A DNA stretch of 62,817 bases from Psammoneis japonica (taxonomy: Eukaryota): NCBI GenBank assembly GCA_008632985.1, contig QPGO01000015.1, forward strand, positions 1-62,817, in the 5' to 3' direction. Below the pieces are notes generated by a model, which worked only from the letters and a program-made list of their open reading frames with translations, was not told the origin of the DNA and ran no database searches. The translations under genes were made by a program, and so were the position numbers. Positions 22,830 through 60,933 of this stretch are shown in pieces (position 1 is the stretch's first letter; every line of letters starts with the position of its first letter).

Positions 22830-23060
22830 ACGTGGTTTGTTTGTCCCACAGCCATGTCAGAAGTGGTTCAAGCATTGTCTTGAGAAAGATGTGCAAGCTG
22901 ACAGACAGAGATGAAGGCCACATGGAGCATGCGGCAACATGCATGGCATTCAGTGAACTTAATTTTTCATGCCAAAACCAAACAGTCATTTCAGTGGATG
23001 TTGTTGATGATGCTGAGATGACACCACAGATGCCATGTGCTCCAGCTCGAGAGTTGTCAA
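22830..23060 (+). repeat. Diverged direct repeat A, copy 1 (copy 2 at ~28690-28885)
   Basis: Collinear shared blocks: gtcagaagtggt, caagctga..., catggagcatg/catggaacatg, tggatgttgttgatgatgctga and gctcgagagtt/gctcaagagtt. Confidence 0.7.
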
Positions 23061-28689: not shown

Positions 28690-28885
28690 GTCATTGTTTG
28701 TTGGTCCTGTGAGTCAGAAGTGGTGTGAGCAGCCACAGATGTGCAAAAGGCACACAAGCTGATGGGCAGATGGAGGCTGCATGGAACATGATGTGCTGAA
28801 GTCCATTTCTTGTCAACAACAATGGATGTTGTTGATGATGCTGAAACAACACACATTGTGTGTTCTGGCTCAAGAGTTTTCATGA
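28690..28885 (+). repeat. Diverged direct repeat A, copy 2
   Basis: Collinear similarity to 22830-23060. Confidence 0.7.
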
Positions 28886-30769
28886 GCAGCCTTTAAAATT
28901 ACCCAAACCCACCCTGCATCAGCTGCAGGACTGTGGGGTCACTGCAGAATGTTCAAATCTGGGGTTAAAAAGGACTGGGAGTTCTCAACCTGACATGAGA
29001 GGATCTTGTTTCAATGGGCAGCTCATTGCTGTGGTGACACTGCAGCAAAGAGGAGCAACCAAAGGAGCATGAAGATGTGACTAAGTTGACAATGAAGTGC
29101 TGCACCAAGGAAATAAAAGACACTTGCAAATTTTGCAATGGTGTTGCTGATGTGATGCCCAACAGTCTGGTGGCAACAAGTCTGTCCAGCTTTGATCTGC
29201 ACCCTGACAGCATCAACACCTGCAGCCACAGATGTGATGATGACAGTGAGTTGTGTCAGATGGGGGTGAAATTCATGAGGGCAAGCCCTCCAAAACTCAT
29301 GGCCATGGCAAACAATGGACACAATTGAGACAACAAGTTGCCAGAGACAGAGGATGAGGACATTGGGGCACCAGCAAGATTGCTTTCCCACCACTGACAA
29401 AGGAGTTTGGAACACGTGGCATTTGACTTTGACAATGGGCAGACCTCTCTCCTCTGCATGTCAGGACAGCATTTGTGAGCCCTCAGAAACCTCCTGTGTG
29501 GCAAACAAAAAGTGCAAGGGAGGCCTTGACAAGATTCTCAAACAAGCAAAGCATGGCTCACCAAATGGCATTCTCTGAAACCTCTGCTGCATGATCAATG
29601 GCCACAATGGAGTTCAGCACAAAAAACCAGAAGAAGAGATTTGTGTCATGTGCCACCTCTGCCCAAGCTGGGGATGGACCTTGCCACAAAATTGCCAAGT
29701 GGATCACCTGGAACAAAGCTCAAGAAAGTTCAAAGAGAGTGCATGGCTCAACAGGCAAAAGCTTGCCAGCTGCCACACCAAGGTTGCACAGAGTGTGGCT
29801 GACCAGGAGAAGGCTGCTGCAGGCCATTGAACTGTGTCTTGCTCTGTTTGTGACCAAAATCTCACTGCCTCATTTGGGGAAAGCTCCCCTGTGGTTGGTG
29901 CAGCACAACCAGCTTTTTGCAATCAGCTGTTGTTGTTTTTCATGCCACAGCAGCATGCATCAAAGCATTGCTCAAGCACGCAAATGTTGCAGTGGATGGC
30001 CACATGTGATCTTGAAATTGCACACAAAACTTCTTCATGTTGGCACACTGTCTCACAAGAAATGTGGGTGCCTGGCAAAGGCCAAGAAGCAACGGCAGTG
30101 AAAACAACAAAAGACAACAAGGTGGGAGCAACCCCCAAGTCAAAAGCCAAGCAGCTGCCTTTTGAGGCTAATTTTGAGCCTTGCGCTTGAGACTCTCACC
30201 TTCCAAGTGACATCCCACACCAACAGCTCAGTTGAACAAGGGTGTGTTGGTCCCCAGTGACCCTTTGCCAGGAGATCCAGTGCACAGTGCAACAATCATG
30301 GCATCTGTGTGGGGCATTGCAAGCACCAGCTGTTGGCAATGCACTCCACTGCTGAGCTGACAAATGACCTCCCTTGATGCATCAATCACAGGCCCCAGCT
30401 AGCAGCACAGAGCTTGTGCAGCTCTTGTTTGTGTCAGCAGCTGGTGCAACTCTTCCTTGACACTGGCATCATGGTCATCATGTGCTGGAAGCAAGTTTGA
30501 AATTTTTGATTCTTCTCAGCACCTGCAAATGATGTGTTGAGAGATGTTGGTTTGCAATTTGTGCCACCTTTCAATGGCTTGCTGCTCTGACAGCACTTTT
30601 CACAAAACAACCACTGCCTCTTTGCCCAAGCATGCAGCAGGGCCAAGAGAGCACTTGTTGTGGCTCAGCACAGACTCAGCACTCCTTGAAAGAATGGGTT
30701 TTTAAGCAGGCAGAAAACAACAGAGCCGGGGTCATGAGAGGGACAACTGGCAGTGCAACACAAAAACAA

Positions 30770-31165
30770 TGAGTGACTGGGTGGGCAGCAAGTGTGGCAG
30801 TGCAGGCTCAGAGCCACAGATCTGCACAACCAAGATCAGCAACACAGCAAATCCCAGGGAAAATGGTGCTGAAGAAGACATCAACTTTGGCATGAGAATT
30901 GGGAACAATTGTGAGAATGGGAACAACATTGGTGATTGCAGTGTTCTGGATTTCAAGGCAGAAGAATGAGATCAGCACAACTCTCAAGGTGGGAAAGGCA
31001 GAAGGATGAATGGTGGGATTGGCTCACTCTAAAATGAGCGATGGCCCCATCACCAATCAAGGCAAATGGCAGCCATTTTCAGGAGATTTTTTTTCATGTC
31101 TGTTGGACCCAAAGATTGGAAGATGTTGTTTTGCATGTTTTTTGGAAACACCATGTGGGAGAGGA
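30770..31165 (+). repeat. Diverged direct repeat B, copy 1 (copy 2 at ~32075-32455)
   Basis: Shared blocks gagtgactg, aaccaagatcagc/aaccaaggtcagc, gctgaaga..catcaa..atgagaa.tgggaacaa, tcaccaatca, caggagat and gacccaaa...gaaacacca. Confidence 0.8.
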
Positions 31166-32074
31166 AACGGGGGTTGGGTTTGGGGATGCAACCACAGCCA
31201 GACAGAAAGACAAGGATGGGCAAGCCTTTGGACATTGATCAACAACACATTCATGCACACACCAGTGCCATCACAATGGGGCTTGTTGACTTCAATGTTC
31301 ATCTGAAACATTTCATTCATGACACCTCACTCTGCGGACTGGGGAAAGAACATGTGCACTGTGATGCTGCACCTTGCTGGACCTTGCTCTTTGAATGTGG
31401 TGTCAACAGGATCAAAGATGGAGGCACAATTGACAGGTTGAGAGCAGCGCATTTGCCAGAGCCTTGCTGTTGCAATGGGTGCCCAGTCTGCATTCTAACA
31501 GCCTGAAAACAAACCTCAACACTGACAAGATCCCACAAGCTTTCTTGGCTGCACAACATGATCATGAAGAAGGAGATCTTCTGAGTGCTGGTCTGGCACA
31601 CTCAACTGATGGCAGACCATTGTTCATGAATGTCCAACCAAACACAGCCCTGTCATGAAGCACAGATCCATCACTTCCAGCTGCAGCTTGCACAGAACAA
31701 TCTGATGTGCCAGCTCTGACAACAAAACATGAAATGCTGTGCAAGAGAATGGCATTGATTCCTGCTCTGGCAGCGCACCCAACCACTCCTTGATCATGTC
31801 TGGAAGAGGCAGGGGAACCTTCATGATGAGCATGGAGCAAGGCAGAGCAAAACTCCAGCACCCATTGTCAAGGGCAGAAAAATTTGTTACTTTGCTGAAC
31901 ACATTTCACAACAGCAACAACAACAACCATCATTTTTGCCCAAAACAAAAAGCAGATTTTGAGAGCACTTGTTGTGGTGGCTGGTCAGTCGCAAAAGAAC
32001 AGGTTTTCAAGCATGACAGAAAATGGCTCAGGCATGGGGTGAAAGGAACAATCAACAGGGCAGCATGTGAAATG

Positions 32075-32455
32075 TGAGTGACTGAAGAGGCAGCATGTGG
32101 TGCTGTGGATCCAGCAGCAGATCTTCTTTCAACCAAGGTCAGCGGCACAAACCTGAGGGAAAAGAGGGGCCGACACGCTGAAGATGGCATCAATTTCAGA
32201 ATGAGAACTGGGAACAACAATGATGAGAGCAGGAACAGTGTCAACAACCACAGTGCTCTGGATGTCACCAGAGGCAGAAGAGTGGGGGCGTCTGTGTGAG
32301 GTGCGCGGGGGGCGGGTTTTGGCGGCTGATTCCTGTCACCAATCACGATGCATGACCACAGCCGTTGGCAGGAGATCTGCCATGTTGTAAATCCAGACCC
32401 AAACATTAGAAGCTGTTGTTTCTACATGTTTGTTTTAGAAACACCAAGGGAGAGC
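32075..32455 (+). repeat. Diverged direct repeat B, copy 2, straddling the right edge of the TpA-depleted block
   Basis: Collinear with 30770-31165. Its distal part still carries TA and CG. Confidence 0.8.
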
Positions 32456-32724: not shown

Positions 32725-34395
32725 ATGCTAAAGAAGTTTTGGCGTTGTGCGCTCCTACTGGGACTTGTGGCAATAGTTGCCCCTACCACTGAGGCATCGG
32801 TGGAATCGATTCAAAGAACTGCTTTCTCGCCGAAACCCTATGTCACGGATATTAAGAACGGCGGTTCCTTGAACCCGGCTGTACATGCGAGCCTAAGAAA
32901 GGTCACGGAATCGTACCGTGGAGGTGGTGATTCGTCTGGCGAAAGCGACGCGCTGGTGGGTGCCGTTGCATTTACTGCCATCGACAAGATTTCTAGGGAG
33001 CTGTTCACGAAGTACAGCATCCCTTTCCCTTCTCAGTTGGGGGCATGCATGATCATGTTTACAACGATGGTGCTAGGCGAAGAGCTTGTACCTGGATTTG
33101 GAGATAAGATATTTTCCTTCTTGAATCCAGGTGCCCTTTTGTTGGCCAAGTGGCTTCCGGTGTTTTTCGTTCCTGGACTGGCGATGCTTCCACTGGCGCC
33201 ATCTATTGGATCTCCTATTGAGGTGCGTTGTATTGAAGCATTTATTATGTATCTTCTGGGACGTGATTCTGCTTAATGACGCCACTAACTTCTTCTCGCT
33301 TTTGTCGTACGCCCTTTGTATCCTACCGGTGACTAGGTTGTCAAGGTGCTTTCGGTGATTATCCTTGGCTTTATTTTCTCCTTAAGTTCCACGGCCTTTG
33401 CTGTGCTGGGCTTGAGGGCATCCATGGGGGCTGTAACGTCACCTGAAGCACCACCCCAGGTGCCGAAGCGCAGACAGGCGAAAGGAAATGATGCTCCCGC
33501 CCCCCCTCCCAAGGCCTTCTCAGACTCCACGATGGATTTCCTCCTCAAGGGAACAGTGTTGTCTGGAGCTATTAGCATAGCGGCATCACGCAATGATATG
33601 GACTGGGCAACGCCTCTCCGCACTATCAACATGCTTTTTGTTACTGTAACTTCGTACGTGTGGGGAGCTCGTTTACCGTCTGGGTTCAACAAGGTCGTGC
33701 ACCCACTCGTTACCAGCACTGGTTTGACCCTGGCTGCCATGGCAATCACTGGGTTTTGCACTGGCTCTACGTTCATGGATGTTTTACGGACGTACAAGGT
33801 GGGTTCTATGAGTCCACTTGAGACTGGTGCCGGTGACGTTTTGTTGTACCTCCTCGGCCCGGCTGTCGTGTCGTTTGCCATGTCAATGTACAGTCGGAAA
33901 ACTCTCTTGAAGGAAAATCTCTTTGTCGTTATTGTCGCCATGTTTGTTTCAAGTGTTGGGGGACTTTTTGGAACTGGCGCTTTTGTGCGCTTAATCAACC
34001 TAGGTGGTGCTAGTGACACATTTTTGCGTCGCTCGGTTTTGTCACGCAACGTTACAACTGCGCTGGCCATTGCTCTAACATCAATGATTGAAGGTAACCT
34101 CGCTATCGCCGCCAGCGTAGTGGTTTTGACCGGGATTATCGGTGCTACCTATGGGAGGACGCTACTAACAGCAATGGGGATTGAAGACCCTGTATCACGC
34201 GGCCTCGGACTTGGAGGTGCAGGTCAGGGGCTAGGGGTGGCTAGTATGATGAGTGAAAAGGACGCATTTCCTTTTGCGGCTGTATCTATGGTACTCACGG
34301 CGGTCTGCGCTACAACCCTGGTTTCAATTCCAGCTGTGAAGGATGCCCTTTTGAGTCTCGTGGGGCCTGTTACAGTAGCTCCAGTGACTGCGTAA
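32725..34395 (+). CDS. LrgB-domain membrane protein, PLGG1-like (plastid glycolate/glycerate translocator) paralog 1; intron 33223-33336
   Basis: IPFPSQLG, LLAKWLPVFFVPGL, KVVHPLV, GAGDVLLYLLGPAVVSFA, SRNVTTALA, SRGLGLG and EKDAFPFAAV motifs. Signal peptide. Confidence 0.9.
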
Positions 34396-36389: not shown

Positions 36390-37975
36390 GAGAGTTGGAA
36401 AAAAAAAAAGAGCTCGTCGCAAACAGCAAAATAGCACTAACACCATACCAGCGCTGTCGAGCCCTCTCCGACCCACCACACCCCCCATACCCCTACTATA
36501 CCGCCATATAACATCGCCCGTGCAGCGCAACGAGCGATGCAACCTCCCGCCGCGACGCTGTGGATCACGCCATTGTTGTCCTTGTTGGCCGCTCTTCACT
36601 CACGTAGAAACCCTACCACAACCTACGTGTCGACACACATCACACCCATCATCACACCCATCACACGTAGAAATCCTACCACGTTCTACGCTCCCGACAC
36701 CACCATCACGATGACCGAAAACGCCCACCATGACGCAACCGCGTCCTCCCTCGACGCATTTACCCTCCTCGACGACAACTCCCATACGGACTCCGACTCT
36801 GACCCCGAAACTAATGAGTCAATCTTCGACACTGCGGACACCACCGACGCAGCATCCGCTCCCTGCTCCCATCCGCTCCCTGCTCCCATCCGATCACGAC
36901 ATGCCTTGGGCCGACATCTCCATTGCCACACCCCTCAACCCTGCAGACGACACCGAGCATGAATCCATCAATTGCCGCCGAGTCTCCTCCATCAAAATCA
37001 AGGACATCGCCCCGCCAGACGCACCCCACCCCAACCTGGATTTTGACGAATCTCAGCACAGAAGCCGTCACGTCGTCGCTCAGCATCAGCTTCTCACAGC
37101 GCTGCGCAAGCAGGCCACTGAACACCACCACACAGCCTTCCGGGACCTCCGCACCCGCATTGACACCCCACAAGCCCAAATCCAAGCACAACACCTGACC
37201 GCACATCTCGTTGGCAACCTCGCACCCGGCACCCTGCCCCCACGAGCGACGCCTGGCACCTGCACGCACGCTCTTCCCTTTGACGCCTCTCACCAACTGT
37301 GCCTCTCCTCCTTTCCCCTTTTTCACAGGCCCGACAATTGGTGGGCACTGGTCCACACTGATTCGCCTCCGCCCCCTGCCCAACGGCGCGGTGCGATCAT
37401 GCCCTTTGCCATTTTGTTGCACTTGCCCCCACCACTGCCCGGCGCACGCACAAGCAACGCGCCGGGTGGCAATTTTTGTCGGAACCCTCACTGTCCCTTG
37501 GACCTGGCCAGACATGTGACCGACAACATGGCGGGGATCAGCAGTGCCAGGGGACACGGACATCGCGCCTTCGGCGCGATGCGCCGTGCTGGAGCTTCGT
37601 GCCAGAAAACCTGGGGGGCCTCGCTGTGCAATGCAGCCCCAGGTTCCCTGCCATTCTTGAGATGACAGGGCGGGGTGACATTCAAGGAGCCCGTCCTGGG
37701 CACAACGTCCTGGGGGCCTTTTCCAGACCTGAGCGGGCATCCTTGACCATGCGCATCAAGGGTGTCGACTGCCTGCAGGGGATCAGGTTTGGCTGCATCG
37801 CAGCCCCCTGGAGGTGACACATGCTTCAGTGGTCATTGGGGCCCCTGGCATGAACCAGGGAGAGCACAAAAGATGCTGCTGCCTCAACCCACTTGAAGTG
37901 GACACTGCACACACACACACACACACACCCAGCACTGGAGAGAGCAGGTCTGCCGATGAAGATTCCCCCAAGCTC
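36390..37975 (+). mobile_element. Degenerate C-rich retroelement-like fragment, TpA-depleted from ~36850 on; ends with a (CA)n tract
   Basis: Strong C/A strand skew, broken Pro/His/Thr-rich frames and an imperfect ~63-nt tandem duplication at 36600-36690. Family not identified. Confidence 0.5.
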
Positions 37976-38386
37976 TACTGCCACCCTCTATAGCTAGTAG
38001 AGAGTAGCTCCACTACTACTTAGCAGCTGCTGTAGCTCAAGAATGTATCTCTGTGAGTTCTAGACACCCTGCCTCCGCGATGTACGCCTGCTCCGGCAGG
38101 CTTCCTGAAATGCCCAGTTGAAGCTTGTACGCCCATAATTTATAAGACTTTGATGACGTCACGACTGGTGTTGGATTACCTATATGTCTATACTTGTATA
38201 GTATTATATATGTTTTGCCGCCATTTTTGTGTCGCGATCTCACTTTTCACATTCATCTTCAACCTGCTTCTTATTTTCGAACCTCATCGCGGCTCGAGGA
38301 TCTTCGCCAACCGTTACGTTGCTGCTGTCCTGTCTGACTTCAGCTTATTCCATTGCTTTCAATTGCTCGGGGCTTCCCAAACGAAA

Positions 38387-40042
38387 ATGTGGAAAGTTTC
38401 AGTTTGGCGGATCTTTGCCGCCACTCTTCTTCTGGTCGCATCCGATGCGTACTCCCCTCCGCACGTCTTTACAAGTCGGGGACACCAACACATTGGACAT
38501 GGAGCATTTCGTAGCTCGTCAATTCGCCTTTCACATAGAAGCCGAGTTTCTGGTAAGAAACTATTGGTTGGCATGTCAAAGCGCCGAGTCACAAAACAAC
38601 TGAGAATGTCGTCCAACGAAGAACCTACTGTCAAGGCGGTTGGAGCTACGTCGATGTTGGTTCTCTTTGACATTGGCTTTCGCAGGCTTTTCAAATTACT
38701 CTCGATATCATTTCCATCATCGTTGGCAGGCTGCGGTTTCTTGTTTGCGAGCCTTTTGACATTTCCAAAGGGTCAGCAGATTTACAATTTTCTTAGTCCA
38801 GGAGCGGCACTTTTGGCAAAGTGGTTACCTGTATTCTTTGTACCCAGCCTCATTACTCTACCATTGGCTGCAGATCTCGGAACGGCCGCCGAGGTAGGAT
38901 CTTAGCGCTTAAATGCTGAGAGATAAACGAACCATTCTGATGTATAACCTTCTTTGCTCCTTGCCAATTGCTCCTTGCTTTCATAGGTTGCAAAGATTGG
39001 AGTTGTTGTCGGCGGTGGTTTCTACTTTTCAGCGCTGACCACTGCATGGTCTGTGTTGGGAATCAGAAAGCTCGTATCCAGAAACAAGAGTGAAAGGATG
39101 GGTAATGATGCAACAAACACAGCTGATGAAGCTGATGAAATACCTGTGGTTGTCAATGGTGAATTTACTCCTGAAGAGAAAGCGCCATTTTCGGATGAAA
39201 CAGCTTCCTTGCTGAGAATCGTTTTGAGTCTCACTGCCTCTGCTGCGTTAGTGACCAGTACTTCACCGGATCATGCGCACCTTTTGAATCCAACGTGCTC
39301 GGCTTTCATGTTAACCGCGACTCTGCACAACTTTGTCTTTGGTGCCCGGTTGCCAAAAAAATTCACAAAGTTGGTCCACCCGCTCGTTACATGCACCGCT
39401 CTGACATGGGTTGCAGCAAAGCTTCTCGCTTTTGCAACCGAAACTTCCTTTAAATCTGTACTCAAGAAGTACCGCACGGGATCATTGGGTCTCTACACAG
39501 CAGGGGCGGGAGACATTCTCCTATTCTTGTTGGGTCCTGCGGTTGTGTCCTTGGCATGTCAAATGTACGACAGGAGGAAACTAATGAAGGAAAACATGGC
39601 AGAGGTGGCAACAGCGGTAGGAGTTTCATCCGTTGGCGGCTTGTTTGGTACTGCTGGGCTCGTACGGCTTTTGAATATTGGCAATCCTGTTGTCCGTCTT
39701 TCACTGTTATCAAGAAATATTACGTCTCCGCTGGCAATGGCCATTGCGTCGATACTCGGTGCAGATGTTTCGCTTGCCGTTACCATGGTGGTCCTGTCCG
39801 GTTTGATCGGTGCTAACTTCGGTGCATCAATTTTAGACGCATTTGGGATAAAAGACGCTGTCGCACGTGGTCTCGGAATTGGGGCGGCGGCGCATGGATT
39901 GGGAACAGCCGCCTTTGCGAACGAGAAAGATGCTTTTCCATTCGCGGCTATTGCAATGGCTTTGACTGCTTCTGCCACCACCGTTCTAGTCTCCATCTCT
40001 CCCATCAGGAAGGCGGTTATACAGCTAGCTTTGGGGTCTTAG
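38387..40042 (+). CDS. LrgB-domain PLGG1-like paralog 2; intron 38894-38986
   Basis: ISFPSSLAG, LLAKWLPVFFVPSL, KLVHPLV, GAGDILLFLLGPAVVSLA, SRNITSPLA and ARGLGIGAAAHGLGTA motifs. Signal peptide (SDA-Y). Confidence 0.9.
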
Positions 40043-41149: not shown

Positions 41150-42929
41150 GTGCTTTAGTCGCGGACCCTGATGAAAGGAGGAGACGAGGAGAAAGTTGGA
41201 GGTGTCTTCCTTGCTCGAACTTGTAGAGTCTTTAAATAGAAGATTAAGGGAGCCTATGTAGAGCGGAAGGGAACAGCAGAGGGAGGCACGGAGGTAGCTG
41301 TAGAGACGGTAGAGTAGAAGGGTCGAAGGACGCAAGACGAAGGGCGTTTTGAAGAAGGTATGGGTGAGGAGGGAGCAGGGAGAGAGGAAGTGAATCGGAG
41401 GATGTGCGTAGAAAGGTGAAGAACGACGTTGTAGCCAAGAGTTTGGGTGGCCCACTGGGATGGGGTGGCCGTACGGTAGGTGCTCCCAAAGCGATCGGCG
41501 GACAGGCGACGCCATGCGAAGTCAGCGGAGGGAAGGATTGCAGACGGAGACGACAAAGCGTAGAGGAAGGCGGAGTAGGAGGCATCGGAGTGACGAAAGT
41601 CAGAGGAAGAGGACCAGGGTGGCTTGGGCTGAGAGCAGACGGAGGAGGATGTAGAACCAAAGAGCAAGCGGTGAGCAAAGCAGCCGAGACCACCAAGGTG
41701 ATCTGCAGTGAAGGGGAGCAGGAAGATGCCATCGTTGTCAAGCGAAGAAACAACAAGGGATCAATCGGCAGAGGAAGTGGAGGGGCCAAGAAACTTCAAT
41801 CTTGCGCTCGAGTGGTGTGCCTCAGTTAAAATAGGAGAAGAGGGGGCAGGCAGACCTGGAGGAGGGCGAGAGGAAGCTTGAGGGACGGCAACGTCTGCTG
41901 CAATGTGGTGATGGCGGGAGGGAGCGGAAAGGGAGGCGGGAGGGGGAATTAAAATGCCGACATCGGCGGGACGGAGGAGCGGGCAGGTGGGGAGCAGGTT
42001 GGTGGGTTCGAGATGAACGTCATCAGGGGATCGACAGAACTCTGCAAGAGGACCCAAAGTTTGGGCTGGGATGAAAACAGCATCACGGAGACCATTGGAG
42101 AGCTTGGACTTGTGAGCACGGCGGCAAGAAAAGGCATGATCACCACAGGCATCCAGGATGGCATGGCCACAGGGACAGGGAGTGTTGACAAGGGACGGAG
42201 GAAGGATGGGGAGATGAAGCTTGCGAAGGGCGGCAATGACGTGGGCGTCCGAAGAAAGGCGGGAGCTTGGGAAGCGACGGGAGAAGGAATGAAGAGGGAG
42301 GCTTGCAAGCGGAGATGGCAATGAAGGGAGTGAAGATTGCACGTCGTAAGATGAGTTGGCAAGGATGGAGGTTGCTGCTTGCTGCTGATGTTCATGGCAG
42401 AGGCGACGAGCCAGGCCAGGAAGAGTGGCCGATTTAACCAGGGCAGCCAAGGAAGAAGAGGAAAGGGCAGAGGCGGAAGCCAGAACAGGAGCATGACGGC
42501 GGAAGAGCATGTGGAGTCATGGGGAAGAGCGAGGGTTGGACCAGGAAGACAGGGAGAGCTGAAAGCAGCGCAGAAGGGAAACAGAAGTGCCAGATGGCAG
42601 GCTGACACCGTGCGAAGCAAAGTGGAGCGAGCGGAGAAGCGACACCAAGAAGGAAGGAACGGCAGCAGCTGTTGGATCCCGGAGACCAAACCCGCCTGAG
42701 GAGGCAGGAAGGAAGGCAATGGCAATGGAATGGCCAGGAAAAGGAGCGGCGAAGGAAGTGACGCAGTGAAGAAAGCGGTGAGCAACGGTGAGGAGGAAAT
42801 CTTGAAATGGAGAGGTCCAGAGAAAGGGGTCGGGAGGATTGTCGGGGTCGAAGTTGCAGCAGAAGTCAGCCCCAAGGAGGTGAGCAGAGGATGGAAGAGA
42901 TTGATTGTTGGTTGGGGAAACAGCGCGAG
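41150..42929 (-). mobile_element. 5'-truncated non-LTR retrotransposon (CRE-like, restriction-like endonuclease), flanked by 5-bp direct repeat CGTTT
   Basis: GGFGLRDP RT-thumb-like motif, zinc knuckle CPCG...DACGDHAFSC, RLE motif RPADV...AADVAV and FLLPFTADHLGGLG; several frameshifts. CGTTT occurs at 41145-41149 and 42930-42934. Confidence 0.8.
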
Positions 42930-43465
42930 CGTTTCTTGAACTTAGAAACTTGGACGGAATGAACTTGCTGCCGACATGACGTCAGCGGTGCTGACGACAC
43001 GACGCACGATAACAGCATGGAGTTACGACTAGCACAATGTGAACTGTAAAAAACGTCCCGAACACCCGTATCGCATTTTTTGTACATCTATATTTAACGA
43101 TAACGTCTTTTAGCAAATAATTAGGGCATTTTTACAGATGTAACCCATACAATTTTTACTCAAAAATCGATACTTGTAACACAATTAGAAGATTTTTTAA
43201 TGTTTCCTATTCAAATTGAGAGTCAAATTTTGATATTACTTTTTCAACTCCGACTGCTTCATAATCAATAAACAAGTTCGAATATTTTATTAAAAGACGT
43301 GGCCGGCGTTTAGGTCCATTTTGGCGGCTCCGACATTTGAGTTTACTTAACACCAGACATTTCTATAGGACTTAAGTTCGTAGAGCAATAAATACGTAGA
43401 CTGGTACAAATTCTACATCAGGAGTCATGTGCAGTCATTTTACATACCAATCATACAGACATTTA

Positions 43466-53779: not shown

Positions 53780-54487
53780 TCAAGGCCACAGTGGCTCTCC
53801 GTCGTATACGTCCCAGTTGCGAATACCGGTCCACAACTCCAAATCTGGGTATAGGCGGCAGGTGAAAGCCCTGCGACCGCTCAAGTACGCCTTGCCGTTT
53901 CCAAAAACGCGACAGTCCTTCTTTTTGCCCAAAGAAATATGCATTCCTCCGCCATTGGTACGATTGCGACCCCAAACCAGGACAATCGCGACTTGAAGGT
54001 CGACTCCCCAAAAGGGCAGAGCTTCCTTAGCTTTGGCTATTGCGCCAGCCGTCTTGGGGCGTTTTGCCGCCAACTTCAAGGCATGGACCTTGTCAACAAC
54101 TTGACGAACAAACTGCGGTGATGAGAGTGTCGATTGAAGGCTTTGCTCCTCCACCCACGCGGGCCATTCGCTGCTGCCGCGCCCGCTAATGTTCTCGACA
54201 AAGATCTGAACCTGCGAATTCTCCGGGAATTGATCTTCCACCTCCTTCCAAGTATGAAACCAGTTTTGGCACGTGGCTGCCGCTGACATACAGTCATGCT
54301 GGTAGAGATATCCACTTGATAAAACAAAAGGCAGACCCTGAAGGAGAGGCGTCGACATGAGTACTGAAGCGCGTTCGTGCTGTTCCACGAGCGCTAATTG
54401 CTCCTGTTGCTCTCGACGAACGGACGCACGTGTCGAGCGACGTGTGCGTGCAGGACCGGCGTGGCTATCGTCAGCTGCACGTTTCAT
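53780..54487 (-). CDS. Hypothetical protein, 235 aa
   Basis: Clean ATG-initiated ORF with normal composition. No domain recognised. Confidence 0.55.
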   Translation of the reverse strand: MKRAADDSHAGPARTRRSTRASVRREQQEQLALVEQHERASVLMSTPLLQGLPFVLSSGYLYQHDCMSAAATCQNWFHTWKEVEDQFPENSQVQIFVENISGRGSSEWPAWVEEQSLQSTLSSPQFVRQVVDKVHALKLAAKRPKTAGAIAKAKEALPFWGVDLQVAIVLVWGRNRTNGGGMHISLGKKKDCRVFGNGKAYLSGRRAFTCRLYPDLELWTGIRNWDVYDGEPLWP

Positions 54488-54848
54488 GACAGGAGAATAT
54501 AGATAGGAAAAGGGAAAGCGTTGGGATCTGCTGTTGTCTTCGCTACTGCTCTCTGCTTTTTGTGTCGGTCTTGGTACTTCTACTAGAGAGGGGCCACTCC
54601 CAGCTTGGGAGAGGGGCCTATGGTACCGGTACGGTGTATGGTATGCCGGGAGTGGGCGGCGGCATTTTTGTTTGGCGCGTTATGTTCGTTTAGAAAGCGC
54701 GCGACGTACGTACGTACGGACAGCCAAATCGTCTGTCCATTTCCTCAGAACTTCCTCGTAGGAACAGTACGGAAGTTGACGTGGCGTCCGCCGACCATCG
54801 ATCTGGTGGGTGTCGTGTGGTCGCGAATAGAAAAAAGCGGCAAAGATA

Positions 54849-55358
54849 CTGTAGAGTGCGCGAAACGTCAGAATTGCGCGTTGGCGAAAACCACAACTTT
54901 TTTTCTCTCCTCCCGCAGCCGCACATCCCGAGTTTTGCAATTGACAACGCTTTTGGCCTCAAACGGCGGCGAACAAGGCATCGGCAGAACCGCAATCATT
55001 GTAAGAACATGTGTGTTGCTTTGTTTGTGAAAATCCACAATGAGTTCGTCGAGAAAAGTGAATCTCGTAGTCGTTTTGCGTGCAATTTCGCGTTGGGTGT
55101 TCCCGAGAACGCGGTTGCTTTTTCGATTTAGCGTTGTCCTTGCACGGAGAAACGCTGAATCGCAGCTTTGTTGCAATGTGCATCTTGCCCACATGCTGGA
55201 TCTTGGGATGCGTCTGTCTCGGCGTCGCCAGCTCATTGTTGTTGCTTCAAAGAGGATCCGCTCCGGGCTGTCCAAGGCACGGAACGTCTCTTTGTTGTGT
55301 TTGAAAGAGATTCGTTGCTTTGAATTTTTCAAAACGGGGATCTCGGTGTCGTGAAATC
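54849..55358 (+). repeat. Left inverted repeat arm (hypermutated copy, ~54-nt internal deletion)
   Basis: Manual alignment to the reverse complement of 59347-59910. Confidence 0.95.
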
Positions 55359-55464
55359 GTTGTGTGTCATCGGTGTTGTTGCCGCAGCATCCGTCTGTCA
55401 TGGCTCTAATGGCATGTTTGCCTTTTCTCGTTCCTTGAGTGCAGGTTTTGCATCACGTGGCACC

Positions 55465-57720
55465 ATGAAGAAATCCATCTCTCAACGAACTTCATCTAGG
55501 AAGAGGCAACCAACAGTGGAAGCTAGGTTGGGTGAAGAGAACAGAAAGGACCAAGCTGGAGCCCGCAAGAAACGCAGTGACAGCCGTGGAAGAAAGCACC
55601 GGTTGGATCTCCCGTTGTCACCAGACAGTGACGATGCGGACGCATTGTTGAAAACACCAAGCATTTTCTCCAATGCCAACAGACAAAAATCGGGAAAGAA
55701 ATCCTCCTCTTCTAGGTCGAGAAGCTCAAAGTCATCATCGTCATCCAAGAAGACACCCGGGTCGCGTTCAGATTCCGGCAATGCATCCATTGATTTGGAA
55801 GAGAGAGAGCACACCATCTATGATCTGGATGCTTCACATGTCACAGTTGGGTTGTGCTTGCACGATGAACGAAAAACAAGCAGTCCCAAGTTCACCACCC
55901 CGTTTAACTTTCGCGATGGACCCAACAGAGGGCAGGATTTGGTGTCGATTGCATCACTCGGCACTGGCTCCACCACAGAAGAAGTCGAGTCAGAATTGGA
56001 CGCACTCCTTTCTGCCAAAGGAAAGAAACTGATGCCGCACAAGACTTCAAACTCGAAGCCACGCTGCAGAGCTGACCCCCAGATGGCGGATCCTCCAGGC
56101 AAGTGTGGTTCAAGCCGTGTGACGCCCACAGTTGCAGAGGCGCATTGGATGCATGCTCTGACTCATGTGTCGTACAAGAATTGTGATGACGAAGGAGACA
56201 TGGCTGATGATGAGAGTCAGTCTGACCCTTCTAGTGTCATTCTAGACCTGATCTGTGTTGTTGGGAACATTCAAGACGGAACAAGCACGGGGCAAGCATC
56301 CAGGAAAAGAGGAACACAAGACGAAGAGCTGTCATTGGCCTTGTGCCTTTTGCCTCCCGCAACGAACAAGGATGGAACGCATGTTGTTGCAGGTGAGAAA
56401 GACGCGCAGCATGTTGCCACTCTAGAACCATCGGCTGATGGTGGCAGGGTTCAATGGAGTCTCGTGTGCAGCACTGTGTTGTGTGCGGCTGTCGAGGATC
56501 AACGGCACAAGGACAAAGATGGGAACTCGTACGTGGGAAAGAAGTCGTCATTGTTGCTTGTGGAGGATTTTTCAAAAGCTCAAGTGAAGCTTCTCAACTC
56601 CACTGAGCATTTGTTTTCGGAAGCTCACAGGCGTGTCAAGGCAAAAAGCAAACCGCCTGAGGCACGGGATCCAAAATGCGCCTTCCTTCGTCTGTCTGTT
56701 GGAAAGAAGAAGAAAACCGATGAGCCGTGGGATGATGATGAGGAACCATCCATTCCCAGCTCCCAGGATGACAGAGTTGCAGCACTGCTCTCTCCCGAGA
56801 AAGCAGTGAAACCCCGCACTGCAAGAGAAACGCGAGAATTCGACGCGGAGGCTCCTGGAGAAGTTGTCAAATTCATGAAAAAATTGGTTAGCACCGACAT
56901 TGATTGCAACCCTTTTTATCATGCTCTCACGTTGGAACACTGGAAAGCATGTAGACGGCATTGGGGCAACAGGACATCCATCGACGGCGAATGGCAGTTG
57001 CACATTTTTGAGGCGTATGAGCTGGACCCTGAAAAGCCAGACACATGGCCGAACATTGATCTCGTGGCTCCAGAGGTTCATCCTTCTATGACCGAAGATG
57101 ATGGCAGGTGTGGCGGATCAATCCAAAGAGGTGCGCATGAGGTGCAAGGAAACGGGTTGCCCAAATCACACGGCGAGGATCCGGACGTGGCAAATGAAGC
57201 GGGAAGGAACAAAGCAATGGAGCGGATGGCGGAAGGCCAAGTCAATGCAGCTGCAGCTGTCCTGGCCCTGGCCAAAGCAAAAAGTGGACATTTTTTGGCT
57301 CCGGATGAAATGTTTGTCCATGTGATCAACACGGAATCAGAACGCACCGTGGGCATTTCGGTTCCATTCTCAGCAACCAAAACTGTTTGCACCGAGATCT
57401 ACGACAACAGGAGACCGACAGATGCAAATGTTCGCAGTTGGTCAAAGGAAATTGTGAGGTCTGTTCGCAGCAAAGAAAAGGTGGTGCAGATTCACCTTTG
57501 GAACTCTTTGACCAACACAAGCGTCCTTTCATGGTTGGTGGAAGAGCTGAAGACACTTGCAATTGCGGAGTTGTTTCGCGCGGCACCAAAAGATGAAAAC
57601 AACAAACCAAAAGAACCAATCATTCTACACTTGGTGGTGGAAGATGTGGACGCACCATCCGACACTTCCGTGCTCTGGCAGACAAAGCGTAGATGGGGCA
57701 TTTCAAAACTTTGGTCATGA
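55465..57720 (+). CDS. Transposon-borne ORF of unknown function (~750 aa), probably mutated
   Basis: Long open frame inside the TIRs with a basic/Ser-rich N-terminus. Tyr-poor and TpA-depleted. Confidence 0.6.
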   Translation: MKKSISQRTSSRKRQPTVEARLGEENRKDQAGARKKRSDSRGRKHRLDLPLSPDSDDADALLKTPSIFSNANRQKSGKKSSSSRSRSSKSSSSSKKTPGSRSDSGNASIDLEEREHTIYDLDASHVTVGLCLHDERKTSSPKFTTPFNFRDGPNRGQDLVSIASLGTGSTTEEVESELDALLSAKGKKLMPHKTSNSKPRCRADPQMADPPGKCGSSRVTPTVAEAHWMHALTHVSYKNCDDEGDMADDESQSDPSSVILDLICVVGNIQDGTSTGQASRKRGTQDEELSLALCLLPPATNKDGTHVVAGEKDAQHVATLEPSADGGRVQWSLVCSTVLCAAVEDQRHKDKDGNSYVGKKSSLLLVEDFSKAQVKLLNSTEHLFSEAHRRVKAKSKPPEARDPKCAFLRLSVGKKKKTDEPWDDDEEPSIPSSQDDRVAALLSPEKAVKPRTARETREFDAEAPGEVVKFMKKLVSTDIDCNPFYHALTLEHWKACRRHWGNRTSIDGEWQLHIFEAYELDPEKPDTWPNIDLVAPEVHPSMTEDDGRCGGSIQRGAHEVQGNGLPKSHGEDPDVANEAGRNKAMERMAEGQVNAAAAVLALAKAKSGHFLAPDEMFVHVINTESERTVGISVPFSATKTVCTEIYDNRRPTDANVRSWSKEIVRSVRSKEKVVQIHLWNSLTNTSVLSWLVEELKTLAIAELFRAAPKDENNKPKEPIILHLVVEDVDAPSDTSVLWQTKRRWGISKLWS

Positions 57721-57889
57721 CTGTTCGTACACTGCAAACAGATTGGTCATTGACTGGACGGACCATCCGATGCCTCCGTGCTCTGCCAGCAGATAAACCA
57801 CACATGGCGGCATTTTAAAACTGCAGTCATGGCTGCTCGCACACGTTCTAGATGGATCAGCTAGACGGAGCACAACTGTGTGTTTTAGT

Positions 57890-59274
57890 CTAGTCTGACA
57901 TGACACAGCTGCTCGAACAGCTGTGTTGAATCCTCCAACACAGCTGAGGAAGAATTCTTCCTCAGCATCCCCCGTCTTCCTTTCCTGATTGTCATCGCAC
58001 CCTGGCACCCCACACTTGCGAAAATGGTTCCTGGCTTTTCGTGGCGTCATCTCTTCCAATGCCAGCTCGTGCGCCATTGACCAATTCATGCCTTCTTCAC
58101 AAGAAAAACGCTTCAGGCCGGACTTGCAAACAGAGAAGTGGCACTCAATTGGATTCAAAACAGGGCTGCAAGCTGCTGCACAAACTGGCTTGGCTCCAGC
58201 ATCTTCAATCAGTTGTCGAACGCAGTCGGAGATGTGTGTCGATGCGCTGTCCATCAGCACCACAGACCGCGGCTCGCAAAGATGACACCTCCCCAGAACC
58301 GGCACCAAATCATTCTCAACGTGTCTCTCAAACCTTTCCATGTCCACAGTCCCACGTTCCGGGTCATTGTCATGAGGGCCACATTCACGTTCCACCAGCA
58401 TGCACGCTTCGATCACAAAACCGTTTGCATCTGCAGCACCAATCACAGTGCACCTCTTGCGAAAATCTTCCTCAAAACATGCATCAACTGCGGGTGGTTT
58501 GCCAAATTTTCCCCAGCCACGCAAACGCCTGGATGCGTTGGCACTCTTTGCCGTCTCATCAACAAAGACAGCCATCTCTGGTTTTTCTACGAACAACTCC
58601 AGCCGTCAAAAGCACCTCTCCCGCTCGGCCTCGCATCTTTGTCTTGAACGAAAAACCATTTTTTGAAGAGAGCAGCCTGGTCGGTGCAATTGACGCCATG
58701 TGGCAGAGGGGTGCCATGTCATGCCCCGGCGTCGTCTCATTGAAAGCTGCATTTCATCGAGGTGGAGATGCGGCTTCTCTCTCACGACATCAAGCAGCAC
58801 TTCATCATCCGCCTCTGAAAATGATGCAGCTCTTGTTGTCACTCCGCGACGCCTTTTCCAGCTGTTCATTCTACGGCGAGTGGCAGCTTTTGTCTCACCA
58901 TGCTGAAGGCAGTGGTGAAACCAGTCATAAAATGTCTTGCACTTGATCCTCCGGCCAAACATCTGATCAACTTCTTCCCAAACAGATTTGAGAAGACGGA
59001 TTTTCCCACCATCCTTCTGTGCATGCTGCCACGCATTGTCCCCCAGTTTTTCCATTGCAGTCTCAACACACTCCTTCTGCAGTTTCTTGTCGTCGTGCGC
59101 TGTGCCACCACACTGTCTGGGTGCATTCGGCCTGTTGCACGTGTGATGCCGAACTCCGGGAGCAACCCAAACCCCATGCATCATGTCCCATCTTTGTGCC
59201 TCTCCAAAATTGTCACCCTCCCCCGCAGCAAACAACTCAGCTGCTGTTGCCATGAGACACAGAAAGGTTGTGAC
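57890..59274 (-). pseudogene. IS630/Tc1 DD34E transposase pseudogene
   Basis: KPHLHLDEMQ (HTH), AVFVDET, VVLMDSASTH and ACSPVLNPIE, with 34 residues between the second D and E. In-frame TGA at 58606-58608, probably from CGA. Ends are approximate. Confidence 0.85.
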
Positions 59275-59346
59275 CATGATCAACACTCGACAAAGCCTGC
59301 ACTTCAAGCAACGAGAAAAAGGCAAACATGCCGTTAGATTGGCGAT

Positions 59347-59910
59347 GATTTCACGACGCCGAGATCCCCGTTTTGAAAAATTCAAAGCAACGAATCTCTT
59401 TTAAACACAATAAAGAGACGTTCCGTGCCTTGGATGGCCCGGAGCGGATCCTCTTTGAAGCAACAACAATGAGCTCTGGCAAACACAACACACAGCAGCG
59501 ACCAAAAAATGAGCAATAAAACGATTTGTCGTGACGCCGAGACAGACGCATCCCAAGATCCAGCATATAGACAAGATATATATTACAATAAAGCTGCGAT
59601 TCAGCGTTTCTCCGTACAAGGATAACGCTAAATCGAAAAAGCAATCGCGTTCTCGGGAACACCCAACGCGAAATTGCACGCAAAACGACTACGAGATTCA
59701 CTTTTCTCGACGAATTCATTACGGATTTTCACAAACAAAGCAATACACATGTTCTTACAATGATTACGGTTCTACCGATGCCTTGTTCGCCGCCGTTTGA
59801 GGCCAAAAGCGTCGTCAATTGCAAAACTCGGGATGTGCGGCTGCGGGAGGAGAGAAAAAAAGTTGTGGTTTTCGCCAACGCGCAATTCTGACGTTTCGCG
59901 CATTCTACAG
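59347..59910 (-). repeat. Right inverted repeat arm (largely unmutated copy)
   Basis: Reverse complement of 54849-55358; retains TpA sites. Confidence 0.95.
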
Positions 59911-60933
59911 GGAGATGCAAGAAAAATCGAAATTTTCATTTTTCCTTGCTTTTTCCCGCTTTTTCGAACACCACGCGGTCACGCGGTGCGCCTTTTTGTT
60001 CTTCGTCTTGCGGAGATAAGCACGATGCGAATGCGAATGAACCGACAGCACTGCTGTTCCGAAATCCGTTCCGACCCTGCTGTGTTAGCCACTGGATGAC
60101 TGTCTGGGCTTAATGTACTGTGGCTTTGGATGGGTGCATTGACATGGTGAGTGTATGCTTCTGTGGTCATCGTGTGCTTGATGTTTTGTATTCTTACCAA
60201 GTGATGCTGGCTGCGTGCCACAGCGACCGCGGGCGGTAGGCAGAAGTTTTTGTCGCCGCAGGTGGATTCAGTTTCTGCGGACCTGTTGGGGTTCTCATCT
60301 GTTCAGAGTGTAGTCAAAATTGTTTTTCGTGGATAGGCCTTTTCAAAGATTCCCTTCGGGTACGGTTTGGGTACGATTCGGGAACGCTTTTGGAACGTTC
60401 CGAGAACGGTCAAAATGCGGGAATGACGAAATGCCTATTTCGTCGAATGGTTTTTCAATGTTGGAGCTGTTGGTGATTGTTATAGAGCATATTTAGTGTA
60501 AAGCTAGCCCAGCAGTTACAATACATTATAATAGATTAACTACAGCTGCTGTAATTGAAAAGTATTAAGGCTTCTAAGAACCGTACTTTTTTGGGGAGAA
60601 AATAAAAACCGGTTTTGACAGGTGTACCTCTCAGCAATATGCCAATCAAATCCATTTAAATTTTACATTGCTGTGTCATGCTCGGATAGTTTGAACAATA
60701 ATACGGTCATAATGATGCATCATCTTTCCCATTGGCTGATTGTCAGGCTCCAAAGTTGGCTCTCAGCGCGAATTAGTGTATTTGAGAACGTTCTCGGAAC
60801 GCTTTTGGAACGATCTTGGAACGTTTTTAGTACGATCTGCAAGGGAATCTCGAAATCCACTACATCGAAATAGTCCCCCCCAAGAGGCCTTTGTTGGTTT
60901 TGGCAGTTGGAGTTATTTGGCGGTATTTGAATT

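Follow-up and report, generated by a model that had tools for sequence, protein, structure and literature searches.

Probable TpA-specific A:T-to-G:C hypermutation of a Tc1/mariner-type transposon in a diatom

A multi-copy DNA transposon of the Tc1/mariner type has one copy, 5.06 kb long, at positions 54849-59910 of contig QPGO01000015.1 of the diatom Psammoneis japonica (assembly GCA_008632985.1). The two inverted arms of this copy differ by transitions only, mainly at TpA, in the direction A:T to G:C. What is observed are these differences with their context and direction, the tract over which TpA is depleted and the death of the transposase. They are probably explained by TpA-specific hypermutation of the left arm and the interior, of the type described in Bigelowiella natans, with the right arm representing the state before mutation. 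The window is the whole stretch of 62,817 nucleotides that was analysed.

The element and its genes

Besides inverted arms of about 0.5 kb, the element has two genes in convergent orientation, one for a DDE_3 transposase and the other an open reading frame termed ORF-A. The features are as follows.

54847..54848, no strand: TA dinucleotide next to the left terminus, possibly a target-site copy of the Tc1/mariner type
54849..55358, plus strand: left inverted-repeat arm, probably hypermutated; 4 TpA, observed/expected ratio (o/e) 0.13; three CpG decayed; 57 bp fewer than the right arm
54853..59401, no strand: TpA-depleted tract, 34 TpA per ~4.5 kb
55465..57720, plus strand: ORF-A, second gene, convergent with the transposase; 798-codon open frame
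57715..59400, minus strand: Tc1/mariner-type transposase gene, dead; Pfam PF13358 (DDE_3), 45.9 bits, cut-off 28.6, E 6.8e-12; frame interrupted by one in-frame TGA at 58606-58608
59347..59910, minus strand: right inverted-repeat arm, largely unmutated; 20 TpA, o/e 0.50; upstream of the transposase start
59476..59532, minus strand: 57-bp segment, right arm only

The inverted-repeat search returned 54849-55226/59533-59910 (378 nt, 95%) and 55230-55358/59347-59475 (129 nt, 96%), and a further short inverted match was present at 55405-55426/59317-59338. The Tc1/mariner features present are thus the DDE_3-type transposase and terminal inverted arms of 510 and 564 nt with 95% identity. The counterpart on the right (59911-59912) of the TA at the left end is GG, the right flank being another repeat, of high copy number (summed contig depth 858-1192). 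Contigs of the public run X1 broke at 54848/54849 and at 59910, and 307 of them mapped to the stretch at >=80%, showing the family to be multi-copy. The 57-bp difference in arm length is most likely a deletion in the left arm since additional letters are also present at the place equivalent to 59476-59532 in a divergent genomic copy (27 skipped, 79 between).

Ten homologues of the transposase were found at E<=1e-5. The 798-codon frame of ORF-A compares with at most 425 codons in 500 dinucleotide-preserving shuffles, and ORF-A has 43 relatives with E<=0.001. No Pfam family was found for the ORF-A frame, nor for the five relatives scanned.

Comparison of the two arms

The right arm was reverse-complemented and compared with the left over two gap-free blocks totalling 507 positions. 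There were 24 differences; all 24 were transitions and none was a transversion. A MAFFT alignment of the arms gave 26 mismatches in 510 positions, the two extra ones lying at indel edges. The aligned blocks contain 19 TpA in the right arm and 4 in the left. Of the 19 right-arm TpA, eight correspond to CA in the left arm, seven to TG, four to TA and none to CG, and no left-arm TpA was altered in the right arm in the 507 positions. The right-arm TpA cover only 38 of the 507 positions yet hold 15 of the 24 differences (binomial p = 9e-12). Outside TpA there were four A/G or T/C differences (54856, 55044, 55114 and 55188), three sites where a right-arm CpG reads CpA or TpG in the left arm (54946, 55037 and 55347) and a single TG-versus-CA site (55269-55270). 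The left arm has G/C where the right has A/T at 20 sites, with the opposite at four sites (p = 0.0015). Fifteen of these 20 GC-ward changes fall at TpA, four elsewhere and one within the TG/CA site. The preference for TpA is strong but not exclusive.

All of the arm counts given by an earlier, sequence-only reading of this DNA (15 of 19 TpA changed to TG or CA, the other changes, no transversions) were reproduced, and the pair of sequences which it quoted as an example was found at 55166-55196 versus 59593-59563. Its description of the comparison as direct evidence was overstated as polarity is not obtainable from two arms alone. It further took it as established that TIR arms start out near-identical. 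This fails as a mechanistic rule, TIRs, unlike LTRs, not being regenerated with each transposition, but apparently applies here as the differences are transitions only.

Direction of the changes

The direction was examined using columns with Tyr in at least 60% of at least four homologues of the transposase, of which there were 14. In these columns the transposase has Cys nine times, His three times, Trp once and Tyr once, and the conserved Tyr, encoded by TAY, is replaced by TGY or CAY in 12 of the 14. Other conserved residues are retained (Val 12/12, Gly 8/8, Trp 4/4, Leu 14/16). The Tyr content of the transposase is 0.3% versus 4.0-5.7% in nine homologues, and its Cys content 5.7% versus 0.5-2.9%. 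The replacements Ile-to-Thr, Ile-to-Met, Leu-to-Pro and, after a codon ending in T, Ile-to-Val match single TA-to-CA or TA-to-TG steps; Asn-to-Ser represents A-to-G outside TpA. For ORF-A, the 15 columns in which Tyr is commonest among the relatives contain His at seven, Cys at one, Tyr at two and other residues at five, and the well-conserved Tyr columns, of which there are only three, contain His at two and Tyr at one.

The TpA o/e of the region matching the transposase was 0.39-0.88 (median 0.70) in 63 metagenome relatives and 0.11 in this copy, none of the 63 being depleted below 0.39. Judged by these relatives, TpA-poverty is not native to the transposon family, and the signature is uncommon in this family of transposases (0 of 63).

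Other genomic copies could be consulted at 4 of the 24 arm sites, among the 40 differences listed of 823. The 40 listed are places at which the window's letter is absent from every contig, so that the run lends no confirmation to the left arm's letters there. Among these, every contig covering the site carried the right-arm letter at 55044 (2/2), 55170 (1/1), 55174 (1/1) and 55347 (7/7), so that other copies have TA at 55170 and 55174, and the window's own letter at these four sites and at 55369 was in no contig of the run. The summed contig depth was 673-783 on the right arm and 176-279 on the left, a gap which gives a slight hint in the direction expected were other copies nearer the unmutated state. 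At 58788-58789 the coding strand reads TG, giving Val where seven of eight homologues have Ile, and three other contigs read CA with Ile retained. A single ancestral TpA thus had different outcomes in different copies.

Given the Tyr codons, the TpA content of the relatives and the letters in other copies, the left arm and interior are most reasonably taken as hypermutated and the right arm as the older state. The direction that had been proposed, A:T to G:C at TpA, therefore held up, these sources (few outgroup sites being visible) being joined by the experiment in B. natans. The proposal that both strands are affected is likewise borne out by the eight CA and seven TG in the arm and by the occurrence in the genes of Tyr-to-Cys as well as Tyr-to-His replacements.

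Extent of the TpA loss

The TpA o/e is 0.11-0.13 in the interior, compared with 0.46 for the whole window, 0.56-0.71 for the flanks of the element, 0.4-0.7 for host-gene regions and 0.56-0.69 for the high-copy repeat to the right of 59910. In this respect the left arm (0.13) resembles the interior, and the right arm (0.50) resembles the window and the flanks. Gaps free of TpA reach 697 bp in the depleted tract, against a median of 16 bp for the window as a whole. The depletion begins with a sharp boundary at the left end of the element, the first converted site being 54985. Its final TpA-poor stretch gives out somewhere in 59335-59402, so that TpA density changes where the right arm has its inner edge. 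The loss of TpA is thus restricted to mobile DNA, the flanks and host-gene regions being spared. It amounts to 79% in the arm, in agreement with the ~82% implied for the interior. Stop triplets behave in the same manner; TAA and TAG number 11 and 30 in the interior versus 91 and 86 in the flank, while TGA is unchanged (165 versus 168). In the 1-kb windows of the element starting from 55001 to 58001, TpA o/e was 0.05-0.20, on the depleted side of the cut-off set for the B. natans genome, and CpA+TpG o/e was 1.34-1.50, just below the corresponding cut-off of 1.52.

A second TpA-poor tract lies at 22-32 kb in the window with a TpA o/e of 0.03. Its ten windows (22001-31001) have TpA values of 0.01-0.17 and CpA+TpG values of 1.73-2.05, on the depleted and enriched sides, respectively, of both B. 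natans cut-offs.

The favoured scheme is that the arms were once alike and a mutational process at TpA acted later, which would have converted about 80% of TpA to TpG or CpA on both strands, over everything between the left terminus and the inner boundary of the right arm. That arm, nearly untouched, would then display the sequence before mutation. Chemically, a TadA/ADAT2-like deaminase may have acted on the DNA and turned adenine into hypoxanthine; the natural target of such enzymes is an A preceded by U in tRNA. Targeting might be to a silenced-chromatin or small-RNA-marked domain and not to repetition as such. The earlier suggestion of a repeat-targeted process finds no support, as the adjoining high-copy repeat has normal TpA and, in B. 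natans, a single-copy viral insert was hit.

Alternative explanations

The sparing of the right arm may reflect a true edge of the tract, gene conversion or an assembly chimera. That gene conversion or ectopic recombination brought in the right arm from a sister copy with almost no mutation, or that misassembly joined it on near 59340-59400, is a possibility to be taken seriously although not the favoured one. The family is multi-copy, the right flank also consists of a high-copy repeat, the step in TpA density falls on the inner edge of the right arm and none of the contigs listed bridges 59335-59402. However, the arms show no transversion in 24 differences whereas family copies differ at 201 transversion and 604 transition places, so any donor must be a very close sister, and the right arm lies upstream of the transposase start as an intact element requires. 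Either event would leave the conclusion on polarity intact. The opposite polarity, with arms originally poor in TpA and a right arm which gained TpA by RIP-like or methylation-linked C-to-T change at CpA or TpG, would be in keeping with the classical CpA-to-TpA signature of fungal RIP and is not contradicted by the two arms taken by themselves. It is nevertheless very improbable. The host is a diatom, the right arm is not enriched in TpA (its o/e is close to that of the window; TpA/ApT 0.53, (CpA+TpG)/(ApC+GpT) 1.15) and TA is found at 55170 and 55174 in other copies among the differences listed. As the Tyr codons and the 63 relatives indicate that the TpA-poverty of the interior is derived, opposite polarity would still need a TA-destroying process together with a contrary one in a single arm.

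Hypermutation of the left arm and interior could also proceed by a different chemistry, in which a modified thymine at TpA (e.g. 5-hydroxymethyluracil, the product of an enzyme of the TET/JBP type) pairs wrongly with G and the primary change is T-to-C. TpA is self-complementary so that T-to-C and A-to-G are indistinguishable by sequence, and hydroxymethyluracil shows a TpA preference in dinoflagellate DNA. Nothing here points to such a base and the B. natans authors favour adenine deamination; the modified-thymine route is considered unlikely. It is less likely still that the TG and CA letters are unreal, a sequencing or assembly artefact that stems from miscalled modified bases at TpA within silenced DNA. 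The absence of the window's letters at the five sites listed above from the run contigs would suit such an artefact, but the contigs match the TpA-poor interior, with other letters at only 4 of 520 positions in 55566-56085 and 7 of 416 in 56359-56774, although the run may share its sample with the assembly and its contigs are possibly not independent. Strand-specific miscalls should also yield CpG, which was seen at none of the 19 sites. Finally, TpA is mildly under-represented throughout the window, as might be expected if selection or GC-biased gene conversion instead of a targeted mutator had removed it. This has almost nothing to commend it given the sharp stop at the element's left terminus. 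Non-coding arm and genes have lost TpA to the same degree, and the loss was not selected because conserved Tyr residues were destroyed; GC bias would act on all A/T and not concentrate 15 of 20 GC-ward changes at TpA.

Comparison with known systems

Fungal RIP, in Neurospora and other fungi, resembles the present case in giving transitions only, in a dinucleotide context, at the DNA level, on both strands and with the killing of transposons. However, RIP creates TpA from CpA whereas TpA is destroyed in this element, the host is no fungus, and RIP depends on duplication whereas the neighbouring high-copy repeat is unaffected. The RIP thresholds are TpA/ApT >0.89 and (CpA+TpG)/(ApC+GpT) <1.03. 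The two indices were 0.14 and 1.61 in the interior and 0.17 and 1.31 in the left arm, and these, like those of the right arm, lay on the other side of both thresholds. With the direction being A:T to G:C, the earlier dismissal of fungal-type RIP and 5mC decay is upheld.

ADAR, ADAT2/3 and TadA convert A, preferably one that follows a U or T, to I, which is read as G, and long inverted repeats are classical ADAR substrates. ADAR is not known outside animals. These enzymes act on RNA whereas the change here is genomic; it affects an element of the DDE (cut-and-paste) class and reaches 4 kb past the repeat arms. RNA editing followed by reverse transcription had been thought unlikely and we agree, as this is a DDE transposon changed on both strands; no reverse-transcriptase domain was found in the ORFs scanned of the element. 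The APOBEC/AID cytosine deaminases, which hypermutate retroelements and viruses, also inactivate invading DNA by context-specific, host-driven deamination, as may be the case here, but give C-to-T/G-to-A, usually on one strand of a replication intermediate, instead of A-to-G.

The closest parallel is B. natans, in whose integrated viruses the same TpA to TpG/CpA hypermutation was measured (Mettrop et al., bioRxiv 10.64898/2026.01.13.699255, 2026-04-14), so the earlier statement that no such system had been described no longer holds. According to the preprint, 230 of 231 single-nucleotide mutations in two viral regions of mutation-accumulation lines were A-to-G or T-to-C, all 230 were at TpA, a single-copy viral insert was mutated and DDE-superfamily endonucleases were enriched among TpA-poor coding sequences (10.64898/2026.01.13.699255). 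Its authors regard deamination of adenine as the more likely route, put forward an ADAT2 homologue as a candidate and cite reports that ADAT2 of Trypanosoma and amphioxus is active on DNA (10.64898/2026.01.13.699255).

Both cases show A-to-G/T-to-C at TpA on both strands, in discrete regions of foreign or mobile DNA with some foreign DNA spared, and leave TpA depletion with CpA+TpG enrichment as the lasting trace, DDE genes being among those affected. They differ in host, a diatom (Stramenopiles) versus a chlorarachniophyte (Rhizaria), and in target, a multi-copy Tc1/mariner-type transposon versus a giant-virus or virophage insert. The depletion is far deeper here (o/e 0.11-0.13, and 0.03 in the 22-32 kb tract, versus a Rho of 0.45 for a B. 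natans viral region), the tract ends within the element and a few A-to-G changes lie outside TpA whereas the B. natans process is strictly at TpA. Mutation was observed de novo in the B. natans lines while the diatom case is known from its trace alone. A literature search found no report of such hypermutation for any diatom. Thus the trace that a TA-specific mutator leaves on invading DNA, described for the first time in 2026 from an unrelated alga, is now seen in a diatom transposon.

Structure of the element and its genes

A repeat search showed that positions 54849-59910 are bounded by inverted arms, which pair in two blocks: 54849-55226 with 59533-59910 (378 nt, 95%) and 55230-55358 with 59347-59475 (129 nt, 96%). 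The parts of this element are as follows.

54849-55358, left arm
55324-57720, plus strand, ORF-A, an open frame of 798 codons with a likely start at 55465, running towards the transposase
57715-59400, minus strand, DDE_3 (Tc1/mariner-type) transposase (Pfam E 6.8e-12), with one in-frame TGA
59347-59910, right arm (inverted)

Given these positions and orientations, each arm lies upstream of an inward-facing gene. ORF-A exceeds the longest frame found in 500 dinucleotide-preserving shuffles (maximum 425). A search of 1.84 billion library proteins found 43 relatives of it at E ≤ 0.001. No Pfam family was matched by ORF-A itself or by the five relatives scanned. Within residues ~610-735 of ORF-A (57300-57717), the C-terminal ~110 residues match a recurring module, present in as many as 10 copies in unannotated proteins of very large size, one of them 3765 aa long.

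The contigs of a public sequencing run, X1, were matched to the element. They break at 54848/54849 and at 59910. The element family is multi-copy, as 307 of them match the stretch with an identity of at least 80%. Two other runs, X2 and X3, gave 18 and 0 matching records and added little. As TA lies to the left of the element and GG to the right, the flanks do not demonstrate a target-site duplication. One run contig of 745 letters matches the left flank, 54144-54848, and continues with 40 letters that do not match the element; it may represent an allele that lacks the insertion, or a different junction. A degenerate 25-nt pattern drawn from the conserved arm terminus had no matches in the metagenome contigs scanned.

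Differences between the two arms

The arms were aligned with MAFFT and differences were counted over two gap-free blocks totalling 507 positions. All 24 differences were transitions and none was a transversion. The right arm has 19 TpA in these blocks and the left arm 4; at the 19 right-arm sites the left arm reads CA 8 times, TG 7 times and TA 4 times. Thus 15 of the 24 differences fall inside right-arm TpA, which cover only 38 of the 507 positions (p = 9e-12). Of the 24 sites, 20 have the G/C letter on the left-arm side and 4 have the A/T letter there (p = 0.0015). Three of the latter four are a right-arm CpG facing CpA or TpG in the left arm, and the fourth is part of a TG-versus-CA site. 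Four of the 20 G/C sites are A-to-G changes outside TpA, and the right arm has 57 extra bases.

This recount reproduced every number in a sequence-only reading of the window, which had proposed from the same comparison a repeat-targeted A-to-G hypermutator acting at TpA, a 'reverse RIP'. Two arms alone are unable to polarise themselves, and evidence on direction was therefore sought elsewhere.

Direction of the change

The left arm and the interior both have an observed/expected ratio (o/e) of TpA of 0.13, and the transposase half has 0.11. The right arm, at 0.50, is close to the window average of 0.46, and the flanks have 0.56-0.71. Of the two arms, it is the right one that has normal TpA.

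The transposase protein was aligned with 9 of the 10 homologues found, and a column counted as conserved tyrosine when four or more homologues were represented in it and 60% or more of these had Tyr. At the 14 such columns the element has Cys 9 times, His 3 times, Trp once and Tyr once, while other conserved residues are kept (Val 12/12, Gly 8/8, Trp 4/4, Leu 14/16). A change of TAY to TGY or CAY is a change of TpA to TpG or CpA, which neither CpG decay nor any C-to-T process can yield. The composition of the whole protein agrees, with Tyr at 0.3% against 4.0-5.7% in the homologues and Cys at 5.7% against 0.5-2.9%. An Asn-to-Ser replacement in the transposase represents A-to-G outside TpA. ORF-A offers a weaker test: its three well-conserved Tyr columns hold His twice and Tyr once, and in the 15 columns with Tyr as no more than the most frequent residue it has His seven times, Tyr twice, Cys once and other residues five times.

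A baseline for the family was taken from 63 metagenome-contig relatives found by a protein-guided scan, which at 29-54% identity are too distant for arm alignment and serve for TpA content only. Across the transposase match their TpA o/e was 0.39-0.88 with a median of 0.70; none lay near 0.11 and the depletion signature was present in 0 of the 63. An intrinsic TpA bias of the family was accordingly rejected.

Other copies of the element allowed 4 of the 24 arm sites to be polarised from the 40 of 823 difference records listed. Among the records listed, every covering contig carries the right-arm letter at these four diagnostic sites (2/2 at 55044, 1/1 at 55170, 1/1 at 55174 and 7/7 at 55347). 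A divergent copy is among these contigs, with 44 other letters in 245. It too carries additional letters at the place of the 57 right-arm bases, and from this comparison the left-arm gap is probably a deletion. At 58788-58789 on the coding strand the element reads TG, giving Val where 7 of 8 homologues have Ile, and three other contigs read CA, which keeps Ile; the ancestor was TA, resolved differently among the copies. Summed contig depth is ~3x higher on the right arm than on the left, as expected if independently mutated copies are all nearer to the unmutated state, which is weak evidence as depth is one figure per contig. Among the records listed, no run contig carries the window letter at 55044, 55170, 55174, 55347 or 55369. 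The culture may differ from the assembly in this arm, which is hypermutated, or filtering may have dropped the culture's own contigs.

Stop codons follow the same direction. The counts of TAA and TAG are 91 and 86 in the flank and 11 and 30 in the interior, with TGA unchanged (168 versus 165). Taken together, the dinucleotide, protein, baseline, other-copy, stop-codon and ORF-A evidence shows that the left arm and interior lost TpA through A:T to G:C change and that the right arm retains the earlier sequence. The arm conversion of 79% agrees with the ~82% loss implied for the interior. The direction and context put forward in the sequence-only reading are thus supported. RIP with reversed polarity was rejected, since TpA is normal in the right arm and 12 of the 14 conserved tyrosines of the transposase have become Cys or His. 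Selection or biased gene conversion as the cause of the TpA loss, and ADAR-type RNA editing fixed through reverse transcription, were also rejected.

A strand bias in the interior is possible. In the tyrosine test over 55359-59346, minus-strand A-to-G equivalents exceed plus-strand ones in both genes (Cys 9 versus His 3 in the transposase, His 7 versus Cys 1 in ORF-A; 16 versus 4 in total, p = 0.012), and the plus strand of the interior has 403 CA against 336 TG (p = 0.015). The left arm is symmetric, with CA 8 and TG 7.

Edges of the tract and the spared right arm

TpA density is normal up to the TA at 54847. Between 54853 and 59401 there are only 34 TpA, and the gaps between them, with a window median of 16 bp, reach 697 bp; between 59402 and 59773 there are 19. 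The left edge of the tract lies between 54848 and 54985, where neither arm has a TpA. Its right edge coincides with the inner end of the right arm, somewhere in 59335-59402. Conversion per TpA, estimated from the arm-category counts, is 0.79 in the left arm and 0 to ~0.12 in the right. The element is without CpG depletion (o/e 0.71-0.79 in the interior, 1.4-1.6 in the arms), so CpG decay and TpA loss are separable here.

The sparing of the right arm could reflect a true edge of the tract, its replacement by the arm of a closely related sister copy that had not been mutated, or an assembly switch between copies. Family copies differ from one another at 201 transversion and 604 transition places; the absence of transversions among the 24 arm differences argues that the two arms are very close kin. 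None of the contigs listed bridges 59335-59402, and missing cover there is not evidential.

Beyond the right arm, the flank at 59911-60850 is another high-copy repeat with a summed contig depth of up to 1192 and normal TpA. It contains 11-bp-periodic units of the GGGTACG/GGGAACG type at 60344-60422 and 60781-60848. Other genomic copies join different sequence exactly at 59910.

Other TpA-poor stretches of the window

A 10-kb complex, non-repetitive tract at 22200-32400 has a TpA o/e of 0.01-0.17 per kb, a CpG o/e of 0.02-0.25 and CpA+TpG of 1.7-2.05. This is the signature of the element, but deeper and with CpG loss. No internal repeat was found in the tract, and neither six frames read through stops nor the longest ORFs gave a Pfam match. 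Two shorter stretches, 36812-37976 (1164 bp) and 41950-42943 (~990 bp), have no or very few TpA. They are strongly C-skewed with a GC content of 0.56-0.62 and long ORFs on both strands, had no Pfam match, and may be compositional rather than hypermutated.

Two LrgB-family genes on the same strand, 33337-34395 and 38987-40042, lie ~5 kb apart and are probably tandem paralogues. The nearest Atlas cluster of the LrgB gene is Bacillariophyta, and diatoms are all 6 of the 6 named organisms among the best 120 matches of an exopolyphosphatase ORF (top identity 53%). These host genes indicate that the window is from a diatom.

Significance and comparison with known systems

To our knowledge, the only transposon-killing point-mutation systems known before 2026 were C-to-T: fungal RIP and animal APOBEC. 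Genetically tractable species exist among diatoms, and knock-outs in them could be used to look for the enzyme and its targeting. For base editing, a natural DNA adenine deaminase preferring TpA would be an interesting enzyme. The half-spared element is an internal before-and-after pair, with its own control, for defining the context of the process. As TpA loss takes away TAA and TAG stops, it creates long false ORFs. An A:T to G:C, TpA-specific counterpart has now been shown by one preprint in a chlorarachniophyte. A near-saturation footprint in a diatom transposon means that the system is probably not peculiar to one alga and could shape repeat content, gene annotation and base composition in a major group of oceanic primary producers.

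The sequence-only reading knew of no description of such a process. One already exists for Bigelowiella natans (bioRxiv 10.64898/2026.01.13.699255), so the proposed 'reverse RIP' is a genuine type of process. In that preprint, mutation-accumulation lines had 302 nuclear single-nucleotide mutations, of which two integrated viral regions held 231, and 230 of the 231 were A-to-G or T-to-C, all at TpA giving TpG or CpA, with only some lines affected. The same source reports that DDE-superfamily endonuclease and reverse transcriptase are enriched among 324 TpA-poor coding sequences, describes 124 clusters of windows poor in TpA and rich in CpA+TpG, and proposes an ADAT2 homologue as a candidate enzyme. 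It was the only report for any organism, and none was found for diatoms, in the literature searched, subscription journals lying outside its scope. Passages of a Phaeodactylum mutation-rate paper (PMC6604790) contained nothing like the signature.

The claim that repeats are targeted is not supported. Contig depth on the stretch peaks in the repeat to the right of 59910, which nevertheless has normal TpA, and the B. natans giant-virus insert was hit although single-copy, according to the preprint (bioRxiv 10.64898/2026.01.13.699255). Nor is the claim of a new, repeat-induced system supported. We infer that the chemistry is adenine deamination or, alternatively, involves a modified thymine. Tentatively, and with rather more doubt than confidence, a TpA-specific DNA adenine-deamination defence may be common to diatoms and chlorarachniophytes, acting in discrete tracts whose sharp bounds follow a chromatin or small-RNA mark. 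If so, the defence would be ancient in the SAR (stramenopile-alveolate-rhizarian) group or widespread among marine protists, a tract could end partway through one transposon, with one of its arms surviving as an unmutated internal record, and the minus-strand excess of 16 versus 4 would point to a strand-biased, replication- or transcription-coupled single-stranded substrate. The CpA+TpG of the element, 1.34-1.50, is just under the cut-off used for B. natans, which is species-specific. The diatom is a new host lineage, and a Tc1/mariner-type DNA transposon a new type of target, for a hypermutation first reported in 2026.
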